Origin: Lachnospiraceae bacterium
GTDB taxonomy: Bacteria > Bacillota > Clostridia > Lachnospirales > Lachnospiraceae
NCBI GenBank assembly: GCA_030527685.1
Contig: JAUNAG010000095.1
Span: forward strand, 1-10,137
Direction: 5' to 3'
Length of the DNA stretch: 10,137 nt
Positions 1,610 through 8,680 of this stretch are shown here, one piece after another (position 1 is the first letter of the stretch; each line of letters starts with the position of its first letter). Below the pieces are notes generated by a model that was not told where the DNA came from, ran no database searches, and saw only the letters and a program-made list of their open reading frames with translations. A program made the translations under genes and the position numbers.

Positions 1610-1656
1610 GGGGAGGAAGCAAAGAACTTTAATACAGAATGACGAGGACAAGTGAT

Positions 1657-4600
1657 ATGTTTGAACATCTGTTTACCCCTATTAAGATTCGAGGAATGGA
1701 ATTAAGAAACCGCGGCATCATGCCTGCTATGGGAACCAAGTTTTCCGGCAACACAAGCGATGTGACGCCGACACTGATCGAGTACCACAGACTTCGTGCA
1801 AAGGGCGGCAGCGGCCTGAACATCGTAGAGGTCAGCAGCGTGCATACACCGAGTGCACCGAGACATTTCCTGTCCTTAAGCGAAGACCGCTATATTCCGG
1901 GAATGAAGAAGCTGACAGACGCAATCCATGCGGAAGGCGGAAAGGCAGGCGTCCAGCTCTGGCAGGGAAGTCTTGCAGTCGGCCTTGATCAGACAGCACA
2001 GATCCTGATGGCAAGTGAGATGCCGGTAGCTCCGGGCGTCACACTCCCGGGCATGACAGTAGAAGAGATTGAGGAGATCGTCAGATGCTACGGCCAGGCT
2101 GCCGAAAGAGCAGTGAAGGCAGGTTTTGACTGCCTCGAATTCCACTGTGCACACAATTATCTGCCGCATTCCTTCCTCTCGGGCGGCATCAACCACAGAA
2201 CCGATGAATACGGCGGTTCCCTTGAGAACAGAGCAAAGTTCCCGCTGGCATGTATCCGCGAAATTCGTGCTCATATCCCGGAGGATATGCCGCTGTTCAT
2301 GCGAATTGATGCACATGATGATTATCTGGAGAACGGCCTGACAATTGAGGAAGTCATCACCTTCTGCAAGTGGGCAGGCGAAGCAGGTGTGGACGTTCTG
2401 GACGTCTCCCGCGGCAATGTCATCACTCCGGCCAATAAATTCGAGGTTCCGCCGATCGATCTTCCGAGAGGCTTTAATATTCCAAATGCAGCCCGCATCC
2501 GCCGCGAGACCGGCATGCTCACCATCGGTGTCGGACGCATCAACACACCGGAGCTTGCAGAGAAATATCTCGCAGAGGATCAGGTGGACATGGTCGTTCT
2601 CGGACGCGCACAGTACGTTGATCCGGAATTCATGAATAAGGCAAGAGAAGGCCGCACAGAGGATATCGATCACTGTGTAGGCTGTGACCAGGGCTGCCTG
2701 GATGCATTTGCAGATACAAACTGCCCGCAGGTTACCTGCCTGCGTAATCCCGCACTCGGAAGAGAACTGGAATGCAGGATCACAAAGACAGAAAAGCCGG
2801 AAACAGTTCTGATTGCAGGCGGCGGTATTGCGGGACTTGAAGCGGCAATCGTTCTGCAGCAGAGAGGCCACCGCGCTGTGATCTGCGAAGCAGGTGACAA
2901 GCTGGGCGGCCAGTTCCTGACAGCAGGTGAGGCACCGCGCAAGCAGGAGATGAAGGACGAAGTCATCGCGATGGCAAAGAAGGCAGAGCGTCTCGGTGCA
3001 GAAATCCGTCTTCACACCAAAGTTGACGCAGAGCTGATCCGTGAGATGAAGCCGCATACCGTGATGAACGCCATCGGTGCGGTTCCGATCCGTCCGCGTA
3101 TTCCGGGCATTGAGCAGAGCTTTGTTGTCAGCTCCCATGATGTACTGAACGGCCTGACAGAGGTCTCCGGCAAGGTTGTCGTCATCGGCGGCGGTATGGT
3201 TGGCATGGAAGTTGCCGAGTATCTCGCTGAGAGAGGCTGCAGCGTCACAGACCTGGAGATGATGAAGGAATACTGCGCAGATCTGGGCATGGCACGTAAG
3301 TTCTGTGTACAGGAGAGCATCGCAGCTGCAGGAATCGAGTCTGTAACAGAAGTTAAGGTGACCGGTATTGAGCCGGGCAAGGTCGTCGGCGTCAAGGGCG
3401 GAGAGCAGGTTGAGTATCCGTGTGATTATGCAGTTGTAGCCATCGGCTCTGTATCCCGTGACGGCAGAGAGCTGGAGGCAGCTGCAAGAGAAGTCGGTGC
3501 AGGCTACTTCGTCATCGGTGATGCAGGACGCGCAAGACGCGCAATGAATGCAACCAGAGAAGCATTCGACGCAGCATTGACATTTGACGATCCGGCAGTT
3601 CATGCAGATGTGACAAAGCCGCAGAAGGTCGTAGCCGTGACCGGTGCCACAGGTACCATGGGTCTGGAGACACTGAAGCAGCTGCTTGGCAGAAAGAACA
3701 GATTTAAAGTCAGAGCATTTGCAAGAGAATCTGATATCAACAGACAGAAGATGAAGCAGATGGCTGCTCCGAATCTGGAAGTCGTCTGGGGCGATCTGGC
3801 CAATTACGATGATATCAGGCGACTGGTGGACGGCGCCGATTATGTACTTCACATCGGTGCGATGGTTTCACCGGCAGCTGACAAATATCCGGAGAAGACA
3901 CTGTACACGAACATCGGCTCAACCCTGAACATCATCAAGGCAATCAAGGAGCAGCCGGATCCGGACAAGGTGCATTTCGTCTATGTCGGAACAGTGGCAG
4001 AGACGGGCGCAAGAACCTATCCGATTCACTGGGGACGTGTCGGTGATCCGATCAATCCGTCGATTTTCGATTACTATGCACTTTCCAAGGTGTATTCAGA
4101 GCTTGCTGTTTTTGAATCCGGCCTGAAGCACTGGGCATCGATCAGACAGACAGGACAGCATCCGAGTGCGGAAGGAGCAGGCGAGGAGCCGATCATCTTC
4201 CACCAGCCGGCAAACAATGTTCTCGAGTGGAGTACATCCATTGAATCCGGTATCTGCATGGCCAATGTCTGCGAGGAATGGGTTCCGGAATCCTTCTGGA
4301 GAAAAGCTTACAACCTCAGCAGCGGTCCGGCTTACAGACTGACCTGCTGGGAACTGACAGATCTGATGATGGAGCCCTTCGGCATCAGTATCAAGGATCT
4401 CTACGATGCAGACGCACTGCCGTTCTACAATTTCCACGGCCATTACTTCTCCGACAGCCAGAAGCTGGATGACATCCTGCATTTCCGCTGCATTCCGGGC
4501 GAAGCTTACTGGGAAGGCGTTCGCGACGAGATGAGACGCATGAAGGCCAATCCGATGATTGCGGCTATGTTCCCGAGCGCAGAGCAGATGAAGGAACATA

Positions 4601-5127
4601 ACAAGGAGATCGGCATGAAGAAGGGCGGTCTGTACTATGCTCTGGAGAACGGAGACGAGGACTGGATCAAGGCATTCTACGGATCTGCCGAGAAGCGTGC
4701 GGAAATCAAGAGCTGGGATGATGTGGAGCTTTTCCATCCGAGCGAAGAAGAGACTTATCTTGACCACGGCTATGACGAAGAGAAGGGAATCGAAAATCTG
4801 ACACTCGAGGATCTGCAGAAGGCAGCGGCATTCCGCGGCGGCAGATGCCTGATCTCCGCAGTGCCGGCTGATATCTACACCCCGATTCTGTGGGAGTGCG
4901 CCGACAGCCATCAGTTTGCAATGTCTATCAATGCAGTCCTGCAGGGCGGCCACTGGTGCCCGGAGTGCCTGGCACATGAATGGCATTACGGTGACATCGC
5001 AAAGAAGAATCCGTTCTATGCACAGGTCTGGACACCGCTTCACGGTGATGAAGACAACTACGTGATTCCGATGGAATACAGCGGCTTTGATGTGGCAAAC
5101 GAGCTGAAGAACAAGCTTGGTTTATAA
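1657..5127 (+). CDS. Multidomain oxidoreductase: FadH/BaiCD-like NADH:flavin enoate reductase (FMN TIM barrel + 4Fe-4S + two FAD/NAD(P) Rossmann domains) fused to an extended-SDR (NAD-dependent epimerase/3beta-HSD-like) domain and a C-terminal domain of unknown function
   Basis: The ORF track gives 1639..5127. I prefer the ATG at 1657 because GAGGA at 1643–1647 sits 8 nt upstream; the 1639 ATG has its GGAGG 22 nt away. Residues 7–340 carry Old Yellow Enzyme family motifs (HCAHNYLPHSFLSGGINHRTDEYGGSLENRAKFP). Residues 346–367 read CVGCDQGCLD...C...C, matching the FadH-type 4Fe-4S motif CIGCNQAC. Residues 388–425 are VLIAGGGIAGLEAAIVLQQRGHRAVICEAGDKLGGQ, an FAD-binding GxGxxG fold. Residues 512–533 are VVVIGGGMVGMEVAEYLAERG, a second dinucleotide fold. 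Residues 663–820 are VVAVTGATGTMG...YALSK, an extended-SDR Rossmann with a catalytic YxxxK. Residues about 900–1162 have no motif I recognise. The frame is continuous throughout. Confidence 0.85.
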   Translation: MFEHLFTPIKIRGMELRNRGIMPAMGTKFSGNTSDVTPTLIEYHRLRAKGGSGLNIVEVSSVHTPSAPRHFLSLSEDRYIPGMKKLTDAIHAEGGKAGVQLWQGSLAVGLDQTAQILMASEMPVAPGVTLPGMTVEEIEEIVRCYGQAAERAVKAGFDCLEFHCAHNYLPHSFLSGGINHRTDEYGGSLENRAKFPLACIREIRAHIPEDMPLFMRIDAHDDYLENGLTIEEVITFCKWAGEAGVDVLDVSRGNVITPANKFEVPPIDLPRGFNIPNAARIRRETGMLTIGVGRINTPELAEKYLAEDQVDMVVLGRAQYVDPEFMNKAREGRTEDIDHCVGCDQGCLDAFADTNCPQVTCLRNPALGRELECRITKTEKPETVLIAGGGIAGLEAAIVLQQRGHRAVICEAGDKLGGQFLTAGEAPRKQEMKDEVIAMAKKAERLGAEIRLHTKVDAELIREMKPHTVMNAIGAVPIRPRIPGIEQSFVVSSHDVLNGLTEVSGKVVVIGGGMVGMEVAEYLAERGCSVTDLEMMKEYCADLGMARKFCVQESIAAAGIESVTEVKVTGIEPGKVVGVKGGEQVEYPCDYAVVAIGSVSRDGRELEAAAREVGAGYFVIGDAGRARRAMNATREAFDAALTFDDPAVHADVTKPQKVVAVTGATGTMGLETLKQLLGRKNRFKVRAFARESDINRQKMKQMAAPNLEVVWGDLANYDDIRRLVDGADYVLHIGAMVSPAADKYPEKTLYTNIGSTLNIIKAIKEQPDPDKVHFVYVGTVAETGARTYPIHWGRVGDPINPSIFDYYALSKVYSELAVFESGLKHWASIRQTGQHPSAEGAGEEPIIFHQPANNVLEWSTSIESGICMANVCEEWVPESFWRKAYNLSSGPAYRLTCWELTDLMMEPFGISIKDLYDADALPFYNFHGHYFSDSQKLDDILHFRCIPGEAYWEGVRDEMRRMKANPMIAAMFPSAEQMKEHNKEIGMKKGGLYYALENGDEDWIKAFYGSAEKRAEIKSWDDVELFHPSEEETYLDHGYDEEKGIENLTLEDLQKAAAFRGGRCLISAVPADIYTPILWECADSHQFAMSINAVLQGGHWCPECLAHEWHYGDIAKKNPFYAQVWTPLHGDEDNYVIPMEYSGFDVANELKNKLGL

Positions 5128-5144: not shown

Positions 5145-5888
5145 ATGTTAAAAGATAAGGTTGCAGTCGTAACAGGCGGTACACGCGGAATCGGTTACGC
5201 GATCGTGAAGAAGTATCTGGAAAACGGCGCAAAAGTTGTCCTCTTTGGTTCCAGACCGGAGACAGTCGAGAAGGCAGTACAGTCTCTGAAGGCTGAGAAT
5301 GCAGAGTGGGAAGTCAGTGGTGCAAGCCCGGACCTCGGCAATGCGAAAGCAGTTGCCGAAGAGATCGGAAAGGTAAAGGAGAAGTACGGCAGACTGGATA
5401 TTCTGGTCAATAACGCCGGCGTATCCGACAGCACACTGCTTGCAGATTATCAGGACGGCCAGTTCGAGAAGGTCATGGAACTGAACCTCCTCGGCGTCTA
5501 CCACACCATTCAGCCGGCAGCTTCTGTCATGAAGGAGCAGGGTGGTGGATGCATTATCAACATCAGCTCCATGGTAAGCCGTTTCGGCCAGCCGGGCGGT
5601 GTTGCTTATCCGACCAGCAAGTTCGCAGTCAACGGTCTGACCATCTCCCTTGCACGTGAGCTCGGCCCGGATCAGATCCGCGTCAATGCAGTCGCACCGG
5701 GTGTCACAAAGACCGATATGGTTGCCGCACTTCCGGATGAGGTCATCCAGCCGCTGCTGAACACGATTCCGCTTCGCAGAATCGGCGAGCCGGAGGATAT
5801 TGCAAATGCATGCCTCTTCCTTGCAAGTGATCTGGCAAGCTATGTCTCGGGAGCAGTGCTTTCAGTAGACGGAGCAACACTGGTATAA
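5145..5888 (+). CDS. Classical short-chain dehydrogenase/reductase (FabG/hydroxysteroid dehydrogenase-like, 247 aa)
   Basis: The N-terminal VAVVTGGTRGIG matches the TGxxxGIG cofactor motif. NNAG, the catalytic Ser in ISSMVS and the YPTSK (YxxxK) motif are all present. GGAGGG at 5131–5136 is a ribosome-binding site 8 nt before the ATG. The gene starts 17 nt after the fusion gene's stop, so the two are co-transcribed. Confidence 0.9.
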   Translation: MLKDKVAVVTGGTRGIGYAIVKKYLENGAKVVLFGSRPETVEKAVQSLKAENAEWEVSGASPDLGNAKAVAEEIGKVKEKYGRLDILVNNAGVSDSTLLADYQDGQFEKVMELNLLGVYHTIQPAASVMKEQGGGCIINISSMVSRFGQPGGVAYPTSKFAVNGLTISLARELGPDQIRVNAVAPGVTKTDMVAALPDEVIQPLLNTIPLRRIGEPEDIANACLFLASDLASYVSGAVLSVDGATLV

Positions 5889-5917
5889 AATATTAAAGAA
5901 CAGAAGATATAAGTGGA

Positions 5918-5952
5918 AAGCCGTGTGTCCGGGAGGATACACGGCTTTTTTT
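5918..5952 (+). terminator. Rho-independent terminator downstream of the SDR gene
   Basis: Seen directly: the stem is AAGCCGTGTGTCC / GGATACACGGCTT, 13 bp with one G·U pair, around a GGGA loop. A T7 run follows at 5946–5952. Confidence 0.6.
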
Positions 5953-6026
5953 GACTGCATCTCATTTTACAGAGCATATCATCTTATGCTGAGAGAATGA
6001 TTCAACTGCTGTGAAAGGGGAAAACA

Positions 6027-6629
6027 ATGGGAAATTGCTACGGTTATATACGCGTCAGCTCACATGAACAGAATCCGGATCGACAGCTTGCGGCGATGCA
6101 CGAGCTGCACATTCCGGAGAAAAACATTTATCTGGATAAGGTTTCGGGAAAGGACTTTGACCGGGAGGGCTATAAGAAGCTTTTCAGGAAACTGAAAAAA
6201 GGAGACACACTTTATATCAAGAGTATCGACCGTCTTGGGAGAAACTACAGAGAAATCATCGAACAGTGGCAGCTCCTGACGCGCAAAAAGCAGGTTTACA
6301 TGGTCGTACTGGATATGTCCCTGCTTGATACGCGAAGAGGCGGGGACTTGCTGGATACATTTATCAGTGAACTCGTACTGCAGATTTTATCCTATGTTGC
6401 GGAAAATGAGCGCACACAGATCAGGCAGCGTCAGGAGGAGGGAATCGCGGCTGCAAAAGCAAAAGGAGTCAGATTCGGCAGGCCGCCCAGAGAGACGGGA
6501 GCGGAATTCGCCCATGCATACGCCAGATGGAAGAAAGGGGAAATATCACAGAATGTGGAGGCAAGACAGTGTGGAATGGCGGCATCAACTTTTCGTTATA
6601 AGATCAGGAAAATGCAATTGGAAGAATAA
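6027..6629 (+). CDS. Small serine recombinase (resolvase/invertase family, catalytic domain + C-terminal HTH)
   Basis: The N-terminus YGYIRVSSHEQNPDRQ carries the catalytic-serine signature Y-x-R-V-S-x-x-x-Q of the Tn3/gamma-delta resolvase and Hin/Gin family. Further family motifs are DKVSGK..DREGY, DRLGRN, ILSYVAENER and AKAKGVRFGRP. The C-terminal ~45 aa form a helix-turn-helix. AAAGGGG at 6014–6020 is a ribosome-binding site 6 nt before the ATG. Confidence 0.9.
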   Translation: MGNCYGYIRVSSHEQNPDRQLAAMHELHIPEKNIYLDKVSGKDFDREGYKKLFRKLKKGDTLYIKSIDRLGRNYREIIEQWQLLTRKKQVYMVVLDMSLLDTRRGGDLLDTFISELVLQILSYVAENERTQIRQRQEEGIAAAKAKGVRFGRPPRETGAEFAHAYARWKKGEISQNVEARQCGMAASTFRYKIRKMQLEE

Positions 6630-6632
6630 CAG

Positions 6633-6662
6633 CCGGGCAGAAAGGTATACTTTTCTGCCCGG
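6633..6662. repeat. Site S1: 30-bp near-perfect palindrome CCGGGCAGAAAgGTATACtTTTCTGCCCGG immediately 3' of the recombinase stop (candidate recombinase binding/crossover site; may double as a terminator hairpin)
   Basis: Seen directly: 12-bp arms flank the self-complementary hexamer GTATAC (6645–6650). The only arm mismatch pairs as G·U in RNA. A moderately U-rich stretch (gtgattctttc) follows. Confidence 0.6.
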
Positions 6663-6774
6663 TGATTCTTTCAGATTATATACAACAATATAGAACAATT
6701 TTACACCAGAAACATACGTGAAACAAGCATTCCGATCGGATCGACCAGACTGATTACGCCGGATTGTAAGTCCA

Positions 6775-6798
6775 CAGAAACGTATACTTTTCTGCCCG
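6775..6798. repeat. Site S2: second copy CAGAAAcGTATACtTTTCTGCCCG of the S1 core, 137 bp downstream (centre to centre), about 8 bp before the ORF-track start of the next gene
   Basis: Seen directly: 23 of 24 positions match the S1 core. It has the same GTATAC centre, at 6782–6787. The right arm TTTTCTGCCCG is identical to S1. Only CAGAAA of the left arm is conserved. Because both copies are near-palindromic, their relative orientation is ambiguous; the direct alignment is slightly better than the inverted one. Confidence 0.6.
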
Positions 6799-6805
6799 AT
6801 GCAAA

Positions 6806-8680
6806 ATGAAATCAATTCGGGGGAATATGGATATGGCTTCTTTTGTCATGGAGTGTCCGAGCTGCGGCAGGTATGTCGAGGCGAAAACAGGCTTTTTTGC
6901 AAGAAAGAAAATTGACTGTACCTGTGGTTATACCATCAATGTTCGCACAGATAAGCTGACCGGCAGAGTGTGTCCGCACTGCGGCAACAACGTGGTTTTT
7001 GATCAGAGCAAGGCGGATCAGGCGAAGTGCCCGGTCTGCAATGAGCCGATCAACACAATGGAAGAACAGAGCAAGGTGGTGGAATTCTCCTGCGGTCAGT
7101 GCGGTGTACGTCTTCGCGCAGCAAAGGGAACAGATACCTATACCTGCCCGGTCTGTGACCATGTGAACAAAGTGGCTGAAAGAGCTGAGCTGGAAGAAGC
7201 AAAAAAGTCCGGTCTGGCAAGCATCATTCGATACGAGGGGGATAATGCGACGCTTGTCTGGAAGCATCCGCTCGAGGATTTCAACATGGGCTCTCAGCTG
7301 ATTGTCCATGAGTCACAGGAGGCGATCTTCTTCCGCGACGGACAGGCATTGGATCTTTTCGGAGCCGGACGATACACACTGGAGACACAGCAGCTGCCAC
7401 TTCTTGAGAAGATTTATCAGCTTCCGACAGACAGTGAGGCGACATTTCACTCGGAGGTTTACTTCATTAACCGTGCCACGCAGATGGGAATCAAGTGGGG
7501 AACGGACAGCAAGGTTCGCCTGTTTGATCCGATCTCCGGACTTCATGTAGAGCTTGGCGCAAGCGGTGAATTTAATATCCGTGTAGAAAATGCAAGGAAG
7601 CTCCTTCTGCGGATTGTCGGCACGACGGGAGGCCTCAGCAGTGAATCTCTCGTGGGAAATCTGAATTCCAAGGGAATCTTCAGAAGTCTGATCATGACCC
7701 AGGTCAAGAGCTTCCTGGCACAGACGATCAAGGAAAATCAGATCAGCGTTCTTGAGATCGATGAACACCTGATGACACTTTCGGCATCTCTTCGGGAGAA
7801 GATCAATCAGAGCCTTGAGGACTATGGTCTTATGATGCCGGAGTTCTTCGTATCCCGTGTCGTGACACCGGATGATGATCCGAACTTCCGAAGAATGAAG
7901 GAGCAGTATGCAAGACAGTATCTCTCTGTCCGGGAGGAGGAGATCCGGAAACGTGAGGCAGAAGCAGCGGCAGAGCGAAAGGCTGTGGAGGCACAGACCG
8001 ATGCCCGCATGCAGATCATTCATGCACAGGGAAGTGCAGAGGCCATGAAGATCCAAAAGCAGGCCGAGGCAGAAGCTTATCGGATGCAGGCAGCTGCAGA
8101 GGCAGCGGAAATGCAGATGAAGGGCTATTCCTATCAGCAGGAGACATCGCGCATGGTTGGCATGGAGGCGATGAAGAACGGACTGACCGGAGAAGGAGGC
8201 AGCGGCATCATCGGAGACCTCGCAGGACTCGGAGCCTCCCTTGGCGTGATGGGCGGTGTCGCCGGAATGGCCAAGGATATGCTCAATCCGGTTGTACAGG
8301 GAGTCGGAGGTGCATTTGCCGCAGGCGCACAGAACGGAGCGTTCGGAGACAGTCAGATGGGACAGTCCTCCCTCGGAAACGGAGTGCCCGGCGCAGCAAC
8401 TCCCGCACACAGTGCACCGGGGGACAGCTGGAACTGCAGCTGCGGTGCGGCAGGAATTACGAGCAAGTTCTGCCCCGAGTGCGGTGCGAAACGTCCCGAA
8501 CCAAAGCTGCCTGCGACCTGGAACTGTCCGAATTGCGGCGCAGCAGGAATTACAAGTAAGTTCTGTCCCGAATGCGGAACCAGAAAGCCGGAGAAGACGA
8601 CATGGTGCTGTCCGAACTGCGGTGCAAAGGAAATTACTAGCCGCTTCTGCCCCGAGTGCGGAACAGCAAAACCGGAATAA
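6806..8680 (+). CDS. Zinc-ribbon / SPFH (Band-7, PF13421-like, YdjI-type) / coiled-coil / triple C-terminal zinc-ribbon protein
   Basis: The true start is probably 6827 or 6833, because GGGGGAA at 6819–6825 is a ribosome-binding site. The N-terminus has three CxxC...CxxC zinc ribbons (CPSCG..CTCG, CPHCG..CPVC, CGQCG..CPVC). Residues about 140–360 match the Band_7_1/SPFH family that is often misannotated as virion core protein, with LVWKHPLEDFNMGSQLIVHESQEAIFFRDGQ...GAGRYTLETQQLPLL...EVYFINRA...IKWGT. An Ala/Glu-rich coiled coil and a Gly-rich linker follow. The C-terminus has three tandem W(N/C)CPNCGA(A/K)(G/E)ITS(K/R)FCPECG repeats. Confidence 0.8.
   Translation: MKSIRGNMDMASFVMECPSCGRYVEAKTGFFARKKIDCTCGYTINVRTDKLTGRVCPHCGNNVVFDQSKADQAKCPVCNEPINTMEEQSKVVEFSCGQCGVRLRAAKGTDTYTCPVCDHVNKVAERAELEEAKKSGLASIIRYEGDNATLVWKHPLEDFNMGSQLIVHESQEAIFFRDGQALDLFGAGRYTLETQQLPLLEKIYQLPTDSEATFHSEVYFINRATQMGIKWGTDSKVRLFDPISGLHVELGASGEFNIRVENARKLLLRIVGTTGGLSSESLVGNLNSKGIFRSLIMTQVKSFLAQTIKENQISVLEIDEHLMTLSASLREKINQSLEDYGLMMPEFFVSRVVTPDDDPNFRRMKEQYARQYLSVREEEIRKREAEAAAERKAVEAQTDARMQIIHAQGSAEAMKIQKQAEAEAYRMQAAAEAAEMQMKGYSYQQETSRMVGMEAMKNGLTGEGGSGIIGDLAGLGASLGVMGGVAGMAKDMLNPVVQGVGGAFAAGAQNGAFGDSQMGQSSLGNGVPGAATPAHSAPGDSWNCSCGAAGITSKFCPECGAKRPEPKLPATWNCPNCGAAGITSKFCPECGTRKPEKTTWCCPNCGAKEITSRFCPECGTAKPE
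8429..8677 (+). repeat. Three tandem in-frame coding repeats (periods 90 and 84 bp) encoding zinc-ribbon modules
   Basis: Seen directly: the units start at 8429, 8519 and 8603 (tggaactgcagctgcggtgcggcaggaattac..., tggaactgtccgaattgcggcgcagcaggaattac..., tggtgctgtccgaactgcggtgcaaaggaaattac...). They share about 75–80% nucleotide identity. All are in frame within CDS 6806..8680. They are not CRISPR: there are no unique spacers. Confidence 0.8.

Follow-up and report, generated by a model that had tools for sequence, protein, structure and literature searches.

Organisation of the locus

The DNA analysed here, referred to below as the window, is a complete contig of 10,137 bp (JAUNAG010000095.1) from the metagenome-assembled genome of a Lachnospiraceae bacterium, and the genomic context covered is the 10 kb that it spans. 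Its element of interest is a candidate invertible promoter switch: a pair of related palindromic sites, S1 and S2, lying between a gene for a small serine recombinase and an operon for zinc-ribbon/SPFH proteins (Table 1). This placement had been put forward in an earlier reading of the sequence, the original prediction, and it is borne out by Pfam, which assigns the recombinase to PF00239 (Resolvase; E 9e-31) and finds Band_7_1 in the first protein of the operon. Residues R9, S11, D68, R69 and R72 of the recombinase align with the catalytic residues R8, S10, D67, R68 and R71 of gamma-delta resolvase, and the open reading frame (ORF) is intact. Exact-protein look-ups with the recombinase and the SPFH protein located the locus in one assembly and in one other, identical copy, a Logan contig from SRR24915842.

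The first cargo gene has an ATG start codon at 6827, with a further ATG open upstream at 6806. The gap between S2 and the SPFH start codon is about 30 bp, too little for a separate operon promoter. No match to the second cargo protein was found in Pfam, NCBIfam or PADLOC, and the cargo proteins as a group drew no real match from PADLOC or NCBIfam.

Table 1. Coordinates of genes and predicted elements at the candidate switch locus (positions in the window)
Feature	Position	Strand	Description
Small serine recombinase gene, 200 amino acids	6027..6629	+	N-terminal catalytic domain and C-terminal helix-turn-helix region; outside the predicted invertible segment
Extended S1 palindrome, candidate bidirectional terminator	6620..6672	.	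30-bp core 6633-6662 with flanks GGAAGAAT/ATTCTTTC; in the present orientation only
S1 core site, 22 bp	6637..6658	.	GCAGAAAGGT-AT-ACTTTTCTGC; 10-bp half-site, centre 6647-6648, 10-bp half-site
Predicted invertible segment, 137 bp	6648..6784	.	S1 centre to S2 centre; by homology with relatives
Alternative -10 element, perfect TATAAT	6675..6680	-	Poor -35 element GTAAAA, 18-bp spacer; relaxed scan
Promoter-like element	6698..6726	-	TTGTTT (6726-6721), 17 bp, TAAAAT (6703-6698); relaxed scan; faces the recombinase gene
Short GC-rich hairpin followed by T-run, inside the segment	6731..6749	-	Terminator-like match
S2 core site, 22 bp	6774..6795	.	ACAGAAACGT-AT-ACTTTTCTGC; centre 6784-6785; identity with S1 continues to 6801
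First cargo gene, 617 amino acids	6827..8680	+	Zinc ribbons at the N-terminus, SPFH (Band_7_1), zinc ribbons at the C-terminus (Pfam)
Second cargo gene, 234 amino acids	8717..9421	+	N-terminal half hydrophobic
Third operon ORF, 188 amino acids	9435..10001	+	TTG start; no family match

The S1 and S2 sites

S1 is a near-perfect 30-bp palindrome at 6633-6662, the arms of which (6633-6647 and 6648-6662) are complementary at 14 of 15 positions. Read as direct repeats, S2 (6775-6798) and the core of S1 (6638-6661) are identical at 23 of 24 positions, and the repeat can be extended to 27 nucleotides with 25 identities, the starts lying 137 bp apart. The palindrome, the match and the separation had all been described in the original prediction, and both the coordinates and a repeat search confirm them. 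A reading of the sites as two direct copies fares less well: as inverted repeats they agree at 22 of 24 positions and, since S1 is itself palindromic, a choice between direct and inverted orientation has no meaning for this pair.

The half-sites conform to the consensus GCAGAAARGT and surround a 2-bp centre, the two centres being 137 bp apart. A symmetric TA core had been proposed; the core is indeed symmetric, but the dyad axis of GTATAC falls on AT and not on TA (6647-6648 and 6784-6785). Three of the four half-sites carry a GC-rich extension, CGGGCAGAAA, from which the inner half-site of S2 differs (GTCCACAGAAA; 6633-6662 and 6770-6799). The long palindrome thus lies at S1 at present and would lie at S2 once the intervening DNA had been flipped.

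With up to three mismatches allowed, the 24-mer shared by the sites is found in the window only at S1, on both strands, and at S2, and it does not occur in any of 200 dinucleotide-preserving shuffles. A site scorer derived from the family described below gave no other full site within the 10,137 bp. In the viral contigs searched, the 17-mer of the site was absent and the window recombinase had no close relative.

Promoter-like boxes and hairpins

The DNA between the sites (6663-6774) was originally described as a 112-bp AT-rich segment, and rightly so: its GC content is 37.5%, against 50.5% for the window, and that of the half nearer to S1 is 26.8%. A relaxed promoter scan of the segment gave promoter-like boxes on the minus strand only, close by S1, with nothing comparable on the plus strand.

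RNA folding of S1 gives -31.5 kcal/mol (z -8.1) for the plus strand and -25.1 kcal/mol (z -6.2) for the minus strand. The hairpin is followed by a T-rich tail, and a terminator scan scores S1 as terminator-like in both directions. Because it folds strongly on both strands, S1 could end the recombinase mRNA as well as transcripts from a promoter facing the recombinase gene. The fallback named in the original prediction, S1 as a simple terminator, holds in so far as the element is terminator-like on both strands; such a role would be additional to that of a recombination site, not a substitute for it. A search of 5850-6900 against Rfam identified no known RNA.

When inversion between the two centres was simulated, the promoter-like element came to face the SPFH gene, the S1 hairpin was weakened from -24.8 to -16.1 kcal/mol, and a perfect 28-bp palindrome arose at S2. 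The junctions predicted after inversion are CCGGGCAGAAAGGTATACGTTTCTGTGGAC (S1') and CACCGGGCAGAAAAGTATACTTTTCTGCCCGATG (S2'), and that predicted for a deletion is AACAGCCGGGCAGAAAGGTATACTTTTCTGCCCGATGCAAAATG. The short hairpin inside the segment could, once flipped, stand just upstream of the promoter and there stop read-through from the recombinase gene.

A shared layout among relatives of the recombinase

The recombinase is a member of a very large family, 7,971 of 8,000 scored candidates matching at E <= 1e-40 and the nearest being 65-70% identical. Loci of relatives were taken from reference genomes, metagenomes and exact-protein look-ups. In 13 further clades, at 58-68% identity, the stop codon, S1, S2 and a cargo operon follow one another in that order. 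The S1 sites of these relatives are 22-bp dyads located 0-60 bp past the stop codon, in which two 10-bp half-sites flank a 2-bp centre with the core AAAGT-NN-ACTTT; S1 and S2 of the window share both the geometry and the core. As regards further copies of the site, for which the original prediction advised a search, dyads with a common core are present in the 13 relative clades, and the window itself holds none besides S1 and S2.

Site sequences vary between clades, and the four half-sites of any one locus resemble each other. Over the outer five half-site positions there are 3.33 identities within a locus compared with 2.11 between loci, which suggests that the sites track their own recombinase. 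Asymmetric centres occur in nine of the relative clades, and in all nine the two sites carry the centre in opposite sense (GT/AC, AC/GT or TT/AA); that is, they are inverted.

The distance from S1 to S2 in the relatives ranges from 115 to 176 bp and is mostly 134-137 bp. It is 137 bp in five clades (the window, L014, L024, L111 and L126) and 135 bp in two (L115 and L186); spacings of 136, 134, 145, 146, 115 and 117 bp are each represented once, and a single clade has both 166 bp (L106) and 176 bp (L105). Across the 14 tabulated loci (the window, L003, L004, L014, L024, L038, L049, L105, L106, L111, L115, L117, L126 and L134), which provide ten values, the spacings are clustered in phase with a period of 10-10.5 bp (Rayleigh R ~0.7-0.85, p ~0.001-0.005), in a test that was made post hoc on values that are not independent. 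The clade with two spacings illustrates the step: a 10-bp tandem unit inside the segment, AAAATTCACC, differs in copy number between L105/L109 (176 bp) and L106-L108/L110 (166 bp), a difference of one helical turn. We hypothesise that the phased spacings reflect a helical-phasing requirement in a tight loop, and that such a requirement could also impose inversion on symmetric sites.

Matches to the sigma-70 consensus at 10-11 of 12 positions are found in the segment in 7 of the 13 other tabulated clades, an example being TTGACT-17-TATAAT in L003 and L126. In the window, L003, L004, L111, L126 and L142, S1 is extended to a long GC-rich palindrome with a T-run. The cargo in other clades comprises a BspA-type leucine-rich repeat (LRR) protein, an FkbM methyltransferase, a CHAP/lectin protein, zinc-ribbon proteins, a DUF6709 operon and genes for MmeI/Eco57I-type methyltransferases, a range that is typical of phase-variable loci.

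These comparisons bear on an account of the locus in which S1 is merely the terminator of the recombinase gene and S2 a coincidental partial duplicate of it. The strong hairpin and T-rich tail of S1 are what such an account would lead one to see. However, the shuffled sequences contain no match, the same two-site layout recurs past the stop codon of divergent homologues whose sites differ in sequence, and many of the relatives have an S1 that makes a poor hairpin. We regard the account as scarcely credible, and the chance duplicate, which had been raised originally, is rejected on the strength of the shuffles, the recurrent layout and the inversion in relatives that is described below.

Many of the recombinase ORFs at L063-L095, which come from human gut metagenomes, match over only their first ~104 residues and then stop; these are probably pseudogenised copies from one human-gut lineage. 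Nothing useful emerged when the switch regions were compared by BLAST with records of plasmids and phages.

Inversion in relatives

In public assemblies the inter-site segment is present in both orientations in four comparisons, as exact or near-exact reverse complements. In the P0116/P0015 clade (66-67% identical, with an SPFH operon downstream), 15 assemblies have one orientation and two, L017 and L096, the other; in the latter two the flanks are identical and the 125 bp enclosed by them are an exact reverse complement. In the GT-centred CAG:138 clade (63-64% identical, with SPFH cargo) the division is 18 assemblies to two, L047 and L050. The half-sites of these two flipped copies are exchanged exactly as predicted, and it is solely in them that a TTGACT-18-TATAAT promoter faces the cargo. 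A third clade is divided between L041/42/51/54 and L049/56, where blastn maps the segment in reverse, and the sister species P0056 and P0011 provide the fourth comparison (L115/116 against L117-125). The first two clades also have cargo homologous to that of the window. The SPFH proteins of L014 (P0116/P0015) and L038 (CAG:138) are 38% identical to that of the window, and the second cargo proteins of the window and of L038 share 32% identity along the whole of the former.

Contigs L022 and L098 break off at the very point of divergence between the two orientations, which is what branching of the assembly graph in populations of mixed orientation would produce. Separately, L114 and L141, contigs from independent samples, likewise stop at the S1 site, and three contigs from three samples (L142-L144) share an end point 67 nucleotides past the recombinase stop codon, inside the presumed segment.

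Two further observations concern individual relatives. In L057, homology to its sister L038 stops exactly at the S1 core, about 64 nucleotides past the stop codon, where AAAGTACAC meets TCTTGCCG, and is followed by unrelated DNA; either S1 has recombined with a site elsewhere or the assembly is chimeric at the repeat. In L041, L042, L051 and L054 the S2 core, about 176 nucleotides past the stop codon, is mutated from GTGTACC to GTGCAACC, with TTGACT-18-TATAAT facing the cargo. The switch at these loci may be locked ON.

The pattern of recombination in relatives also decides against a site of the res/six type, the other function offered in the original prediction. On such a reading, crossover would take place at S1 with S2 as an accessory, the purpose being resolution of the multimers or cointegrates of a mobile element, or excision of the cassette. 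Resolvase Sin is the best match of the recombinase among solved structures, and an AT centre is used in Sin site I (PMC2764113). The nearest plasmid-borne relatives, at ~51% identity, are annotated res/recombinase, and genes for MobC and relaxase come before the recombinase gene at the P0126 loci. Yet S2 repeats the inverted half-sites and 2-bp centre of S1, and in this differs from a regulatory site; the span of the pair is 166 bp, compared with 86 bp for Sin resH (PMC2764113); and it lies downstream of the gene, not upstream, in a window that lacks genes for transposition, replication and mobilisation. Moreover, relatives of the same layout recombine S1 with S2 to give inversion. The res-type site is rejected on these grounds, and we consider it very improbable. 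It is the recurrence of the layout in relatives, together with inversion between both sites there, that favours an invertible switch.

A model for the proposed switch

We conclude that S1 and S2 are probably the crossover sites of the adjacent recombinase and that they delimit a 137-bp invertible promoter switch for the SPFH/zinc-ribbon operon. Judged by its sequence, the recombinase is a small serine enzyme of the resolvase-like part of the tree, predicted to act as a local promoter invertase. In the model, recombinase dimers would bind S1 and S2, the 137 bp between the centres (~13 helical turns) would form a loop, and the two dimers would come together as a tetramer. Cleavage of both duplexes at the AT centre, a 180-degree rotation of one half of the complex and religation of the ends would then leave 6648-6784 inverted.

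The segment is proposed to carry the only plausible promoter for the SPFH/zinc-ribbon operon. The window appears to represent the OFF state: its promoter-like boxes are directed at the recombinase gene, and S1 can fold into a strong hairpin on either strand. In this orientation the hairpin would stop transcription arriving from either side and the operon would be silent; after inversion the promoter would face the operon, turning it ON, and the long palindrome would be relocated to S2. The arrangement in the window is the same as that in the flipped L017 and in other AT-centred loci.

Several observations weigh against the switch proposed for the window. The promoter-like boxes are weak (3/6 and 5/6 matches, or 3/6 and 6/6), and a strict scan of the segment gave no promoter on either strand. 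Family membership alone implies no switch: among 63 relatives of the L003 recombinase in IMG/VR, some 55 on phage or prophage contigs (L147-L205; 55-65% identical to it) have a coding gene directly downstream and no S1/S2 pair. L186 is an exception among the viral contigs, with an AT-centred pair 135 bp apart and an S1 that overlaps the stop codon. Inversion at the window locus is inferred from relatives, the sole other copy (the Logan contig) having the same orientation. The original proposal of an invertible promoter switch is supported in part, by the layout in relatives and the four comparisons with both orientations, and for the window locus itself a single orientation has been seen.

The crossover centres weigh in the same direction. 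The dyad centre is AT at both sites and is symmetric, so that the sequence alone favours neither inversion nor deletion. In serine recombinases, nothing but the two core nucleotides gives a site its polarity, and both inversion and deletion result when the core is symmetric (PMC3556126); the original prediction was correct in principle on this point. Activated Sin acting on the AT-centred site I yields inversion and deletion products equally (PMC2764113). AT centres mark a whole subclade that comprises the window, L003, P0126, P0143, P0137 and L186. No flipped copy occurs among 18 assemblies from the five AT-centred loci with a readable segment, the promoter always facing the recombinase gene. 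A targeted search for a flipped AT-centred switch, among homologues of L003 and contigs of P0126, P0143 and P0137, found the same orientation in all 15 informative contigs; the three contigs of P0137 break off within the segment. The S2 of P0126 has a degenerate right half.

An alternative that accommodates much of this is that sites and cassette derive from an inverton that once worked, but that the AT-centred segment no longer flips, or flips so rarely as to be effectively fixed OFF, or else that it is prone to an irreversible deletion of 137 bp. The single orientation of the 18 assemblies, the half-degenerate S2 of P0126 and the mutated S2 core of the L041-type loci, relatives that are probably locked, are all consistent with a fossil of this kind, and where the core is symmetric the sequence no longer guards against deletion. 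On the other hand, the recombinase ORF is intact with all its catalytic residues, both sites are full dyads, and no product of deletion to a single site was encountered. Promoters matching at 10-11 of 12 positions have been kept in three AT-centred clades (L003, L126 and L134) in an orientation in which they face nothing to transcribe, which argues for their use in the other orientation. The GT-centred CAG:138 clade, which does flip, is skewed 18:2 towards the same orientation, so that a ratio of 18:0 in AT-centred loci is not decisive. A locked switch is in our view unlikely.

A different kind of switch, in which a terminator and not a promoter is moved, was also considered. Here inversion would dismantle the S1 hairpin and let transcription of the recombinase gene read through into the operon, the boxes in the segment being incidental. 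The weakness of those boxes in the window, the long GC-rich S1 palindromes with T-runs in the window and the five other loci named above, and the loss of hairpin stability in the simulated flip are in keeping with this idea. L014 and L038 speak against it, having weak S1 hairpins and strong segment promoters and flipping all the same, as do the 28-bp palindrome that the flipped window gains at S2 and the second hairpin and T-run, which would stand in the path of read-through. We judge it distinctly less likely than a locked switch, and retain the promoter switch as the preferred interpretation.

A broader proposal can be made more tentatively; we think it possible, though it may well be wrong in part or in whole. 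The window would be one of a subclade of natural switches, run by serine invertases, whose crossover centre is a symmetric AT. In these, the geometry of a very tight, helically phased loop of ~137 bp, and not the sequence of the sites, would determine that inversion is preferred to deletion, and S1 would double as an orientation-dependent bidirectional terminator. The unit of recombinase gene, S1, ~137 bp and S2 would then be a portable minimal switch module, spread through thousands of genomes of gut Clostridia and coupled repeatedly to SPFH/zinc-ribbon membrane operons, surface proteins and DNA-modification genes.

At the P0126 loci (L126-L133), the recombinase, the switch and a BspA-LRR gene directly follow MobC/NikA-like and relaxase genes. 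The module adjoins mobilisation genes there, and can thus ride on a mobilisable element.

Other genes in the window

Beyond the switch and its operon, Pfam identifies a MerR regulator, oxidoreductases and a short-chain dehydrogenase/reductase (SDR) in the window, and no transposase, replication or mobilisation genes. The SDR gene is upstream of the recombinase gene and has its own terminator. An unusual 1162-residue fusion, unrelated to the switch, is encoded at 1639-5127 on the plus strand and joins Oxidored_FMN/old yellow enzyme, Pyr_redox_2 and NAD-dependent epimerase/extended-SDR domains. Divergent from this three-domain gene, at 293-1300 on the minus strand, is that for the MerR-family regulator, of 335 residues. 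The third cargo ORF is overlapped by a further ORF (L001 4444-4683) that runs off the contig end; this may be a longer or frameshifted gene.

Significance

Switches of this type are familiar in bacteria, and the window is probably a further case, in a recombinase family of gut Clostridia. Invertons have been catalogued at scale, Clostridia included (PMC5903667, PMC11602134, PMC11892184). A literature search that was not exhaustive, so that a prior description is possible, found no paper linking an inverton with SPFH genes, no bacterial paper containing the core 12-mer (the supplements searched from the hCom2 inverton study were also without the motif) and no published description of this very large family. 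Of moderate interest are the symmetric crossover centre, the phased spacing of ~137 bp, the doubling of S1 as a terminator and the recurrent SPFH cargo.

For annotation, the proposal offers a concrete function for very many genes now named just 'recombinase family protein' (more than 7,900 clusters at E < 1e-40), and it would explain the recurrent breaks of metagenome contigs at these sites. It predicts phase variation, in gut Clostridia, of SPFH/zinc-ribbon operons, BspA-type surface proteins, the CHAP/lectin protein and genes for methyltransferases. With its tight, apparently phased spacing and natural symmetric centres, the family may provide a compact system in which to study the directionality of small serine recombinases in the absence of a Fis-type enhancer, and its many diverged pairs of recombinase and site are candidate orthogonal genetic switches of 137 bp.

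Comparison with known systems

Ranked against solved structures, the recombinase matches Sin/Bin3 best (2r0q; E 2e-26), followed by gamma-delta (8.5e-22) and Tn3 resolvase (1.8e-20) and then by Gin (3uj3 and 4m6f; 5e-18), and is thus closer to the resolvases than to the Hin/Gin subfamily. Sin shares with the window an AT-centred crossover site, and in its case the polarity must come from the architecture of the complex, not from the crossover sequence (PMC2764113). The resH site of Sin and the six site of beta recombinase are composites of 86-90 bp, in which a crossover site is combined with an accessory site and an HU/IHF bend; they recombine between two separate copies and lie beside the gene promoter. 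Beta recombinase performs both inversion and resolution. The window differs from both in having two crossover-type sites, 137 bp apart and downstream of the gene, of a kind that recombine with each other in relatives.

The same logic, an invertible cassette of ~150-300 bp upstream of an operon and often with the recombinase nearby, is seen in fimS with FimB/FimE of Escherichia coli and in the RecV-dependent Cdi switches of Clostridioides difficile. Promoter switches of this sort are widespread in Clostridia (PMC5903667). Unlike the window, fimS and the Cdi switches employ tyrosine recombinases, a Holliday junction and longer inverted repeats.

Hin, acting on hix in Salmonella, and Gin, Cin and Pin are, like the window enzyme, small serine recombinases with a C-terminal helix-turn-helix, and act on two dyad sites in which A-tract half-sites surround a 2-bp crossover centre. 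In the Hin system, as in the switch proposed here, the inverted DNA flips the promoter of a downstream operon. The segments inverted by Hin, Gin, Cin and Pin are ~1-4 kb long, the reaction needs an enhancer bound by Fis, the centre of their 26-bp sites is asymmetric, and the segment flipped by Hin includes the hin gene itself. In the window the predicted segment measures 137 bp and is not on the kilobase scale, does not include the recombinase gene and is bounded by sites with a symmetric AT centre; to our knowledge, Fis is not to be expected in Clostridia.

Mpi (Ssr2) of Bacteroides fragilis is likewise a serine recombinase of a gut bacterium that acts on promoter cassettes with short inverted repeats, inverting many promoters of capsular polysaccharides in ON/OFF phase variation (PMC10403206). 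Mpi is global, serving 7-13 distant promoters, whereas in the family of the window each recombinase adjoins one cassette, and the repeat sequences are unrelated. The window recombinase scores 51.8 bits against the Mpi family model NCBIfam NF009949, for which the cutoff is 272, and so falls outside the Mpi family. The window enzyme therefore matches Hin and Mpi in logic, not in family.

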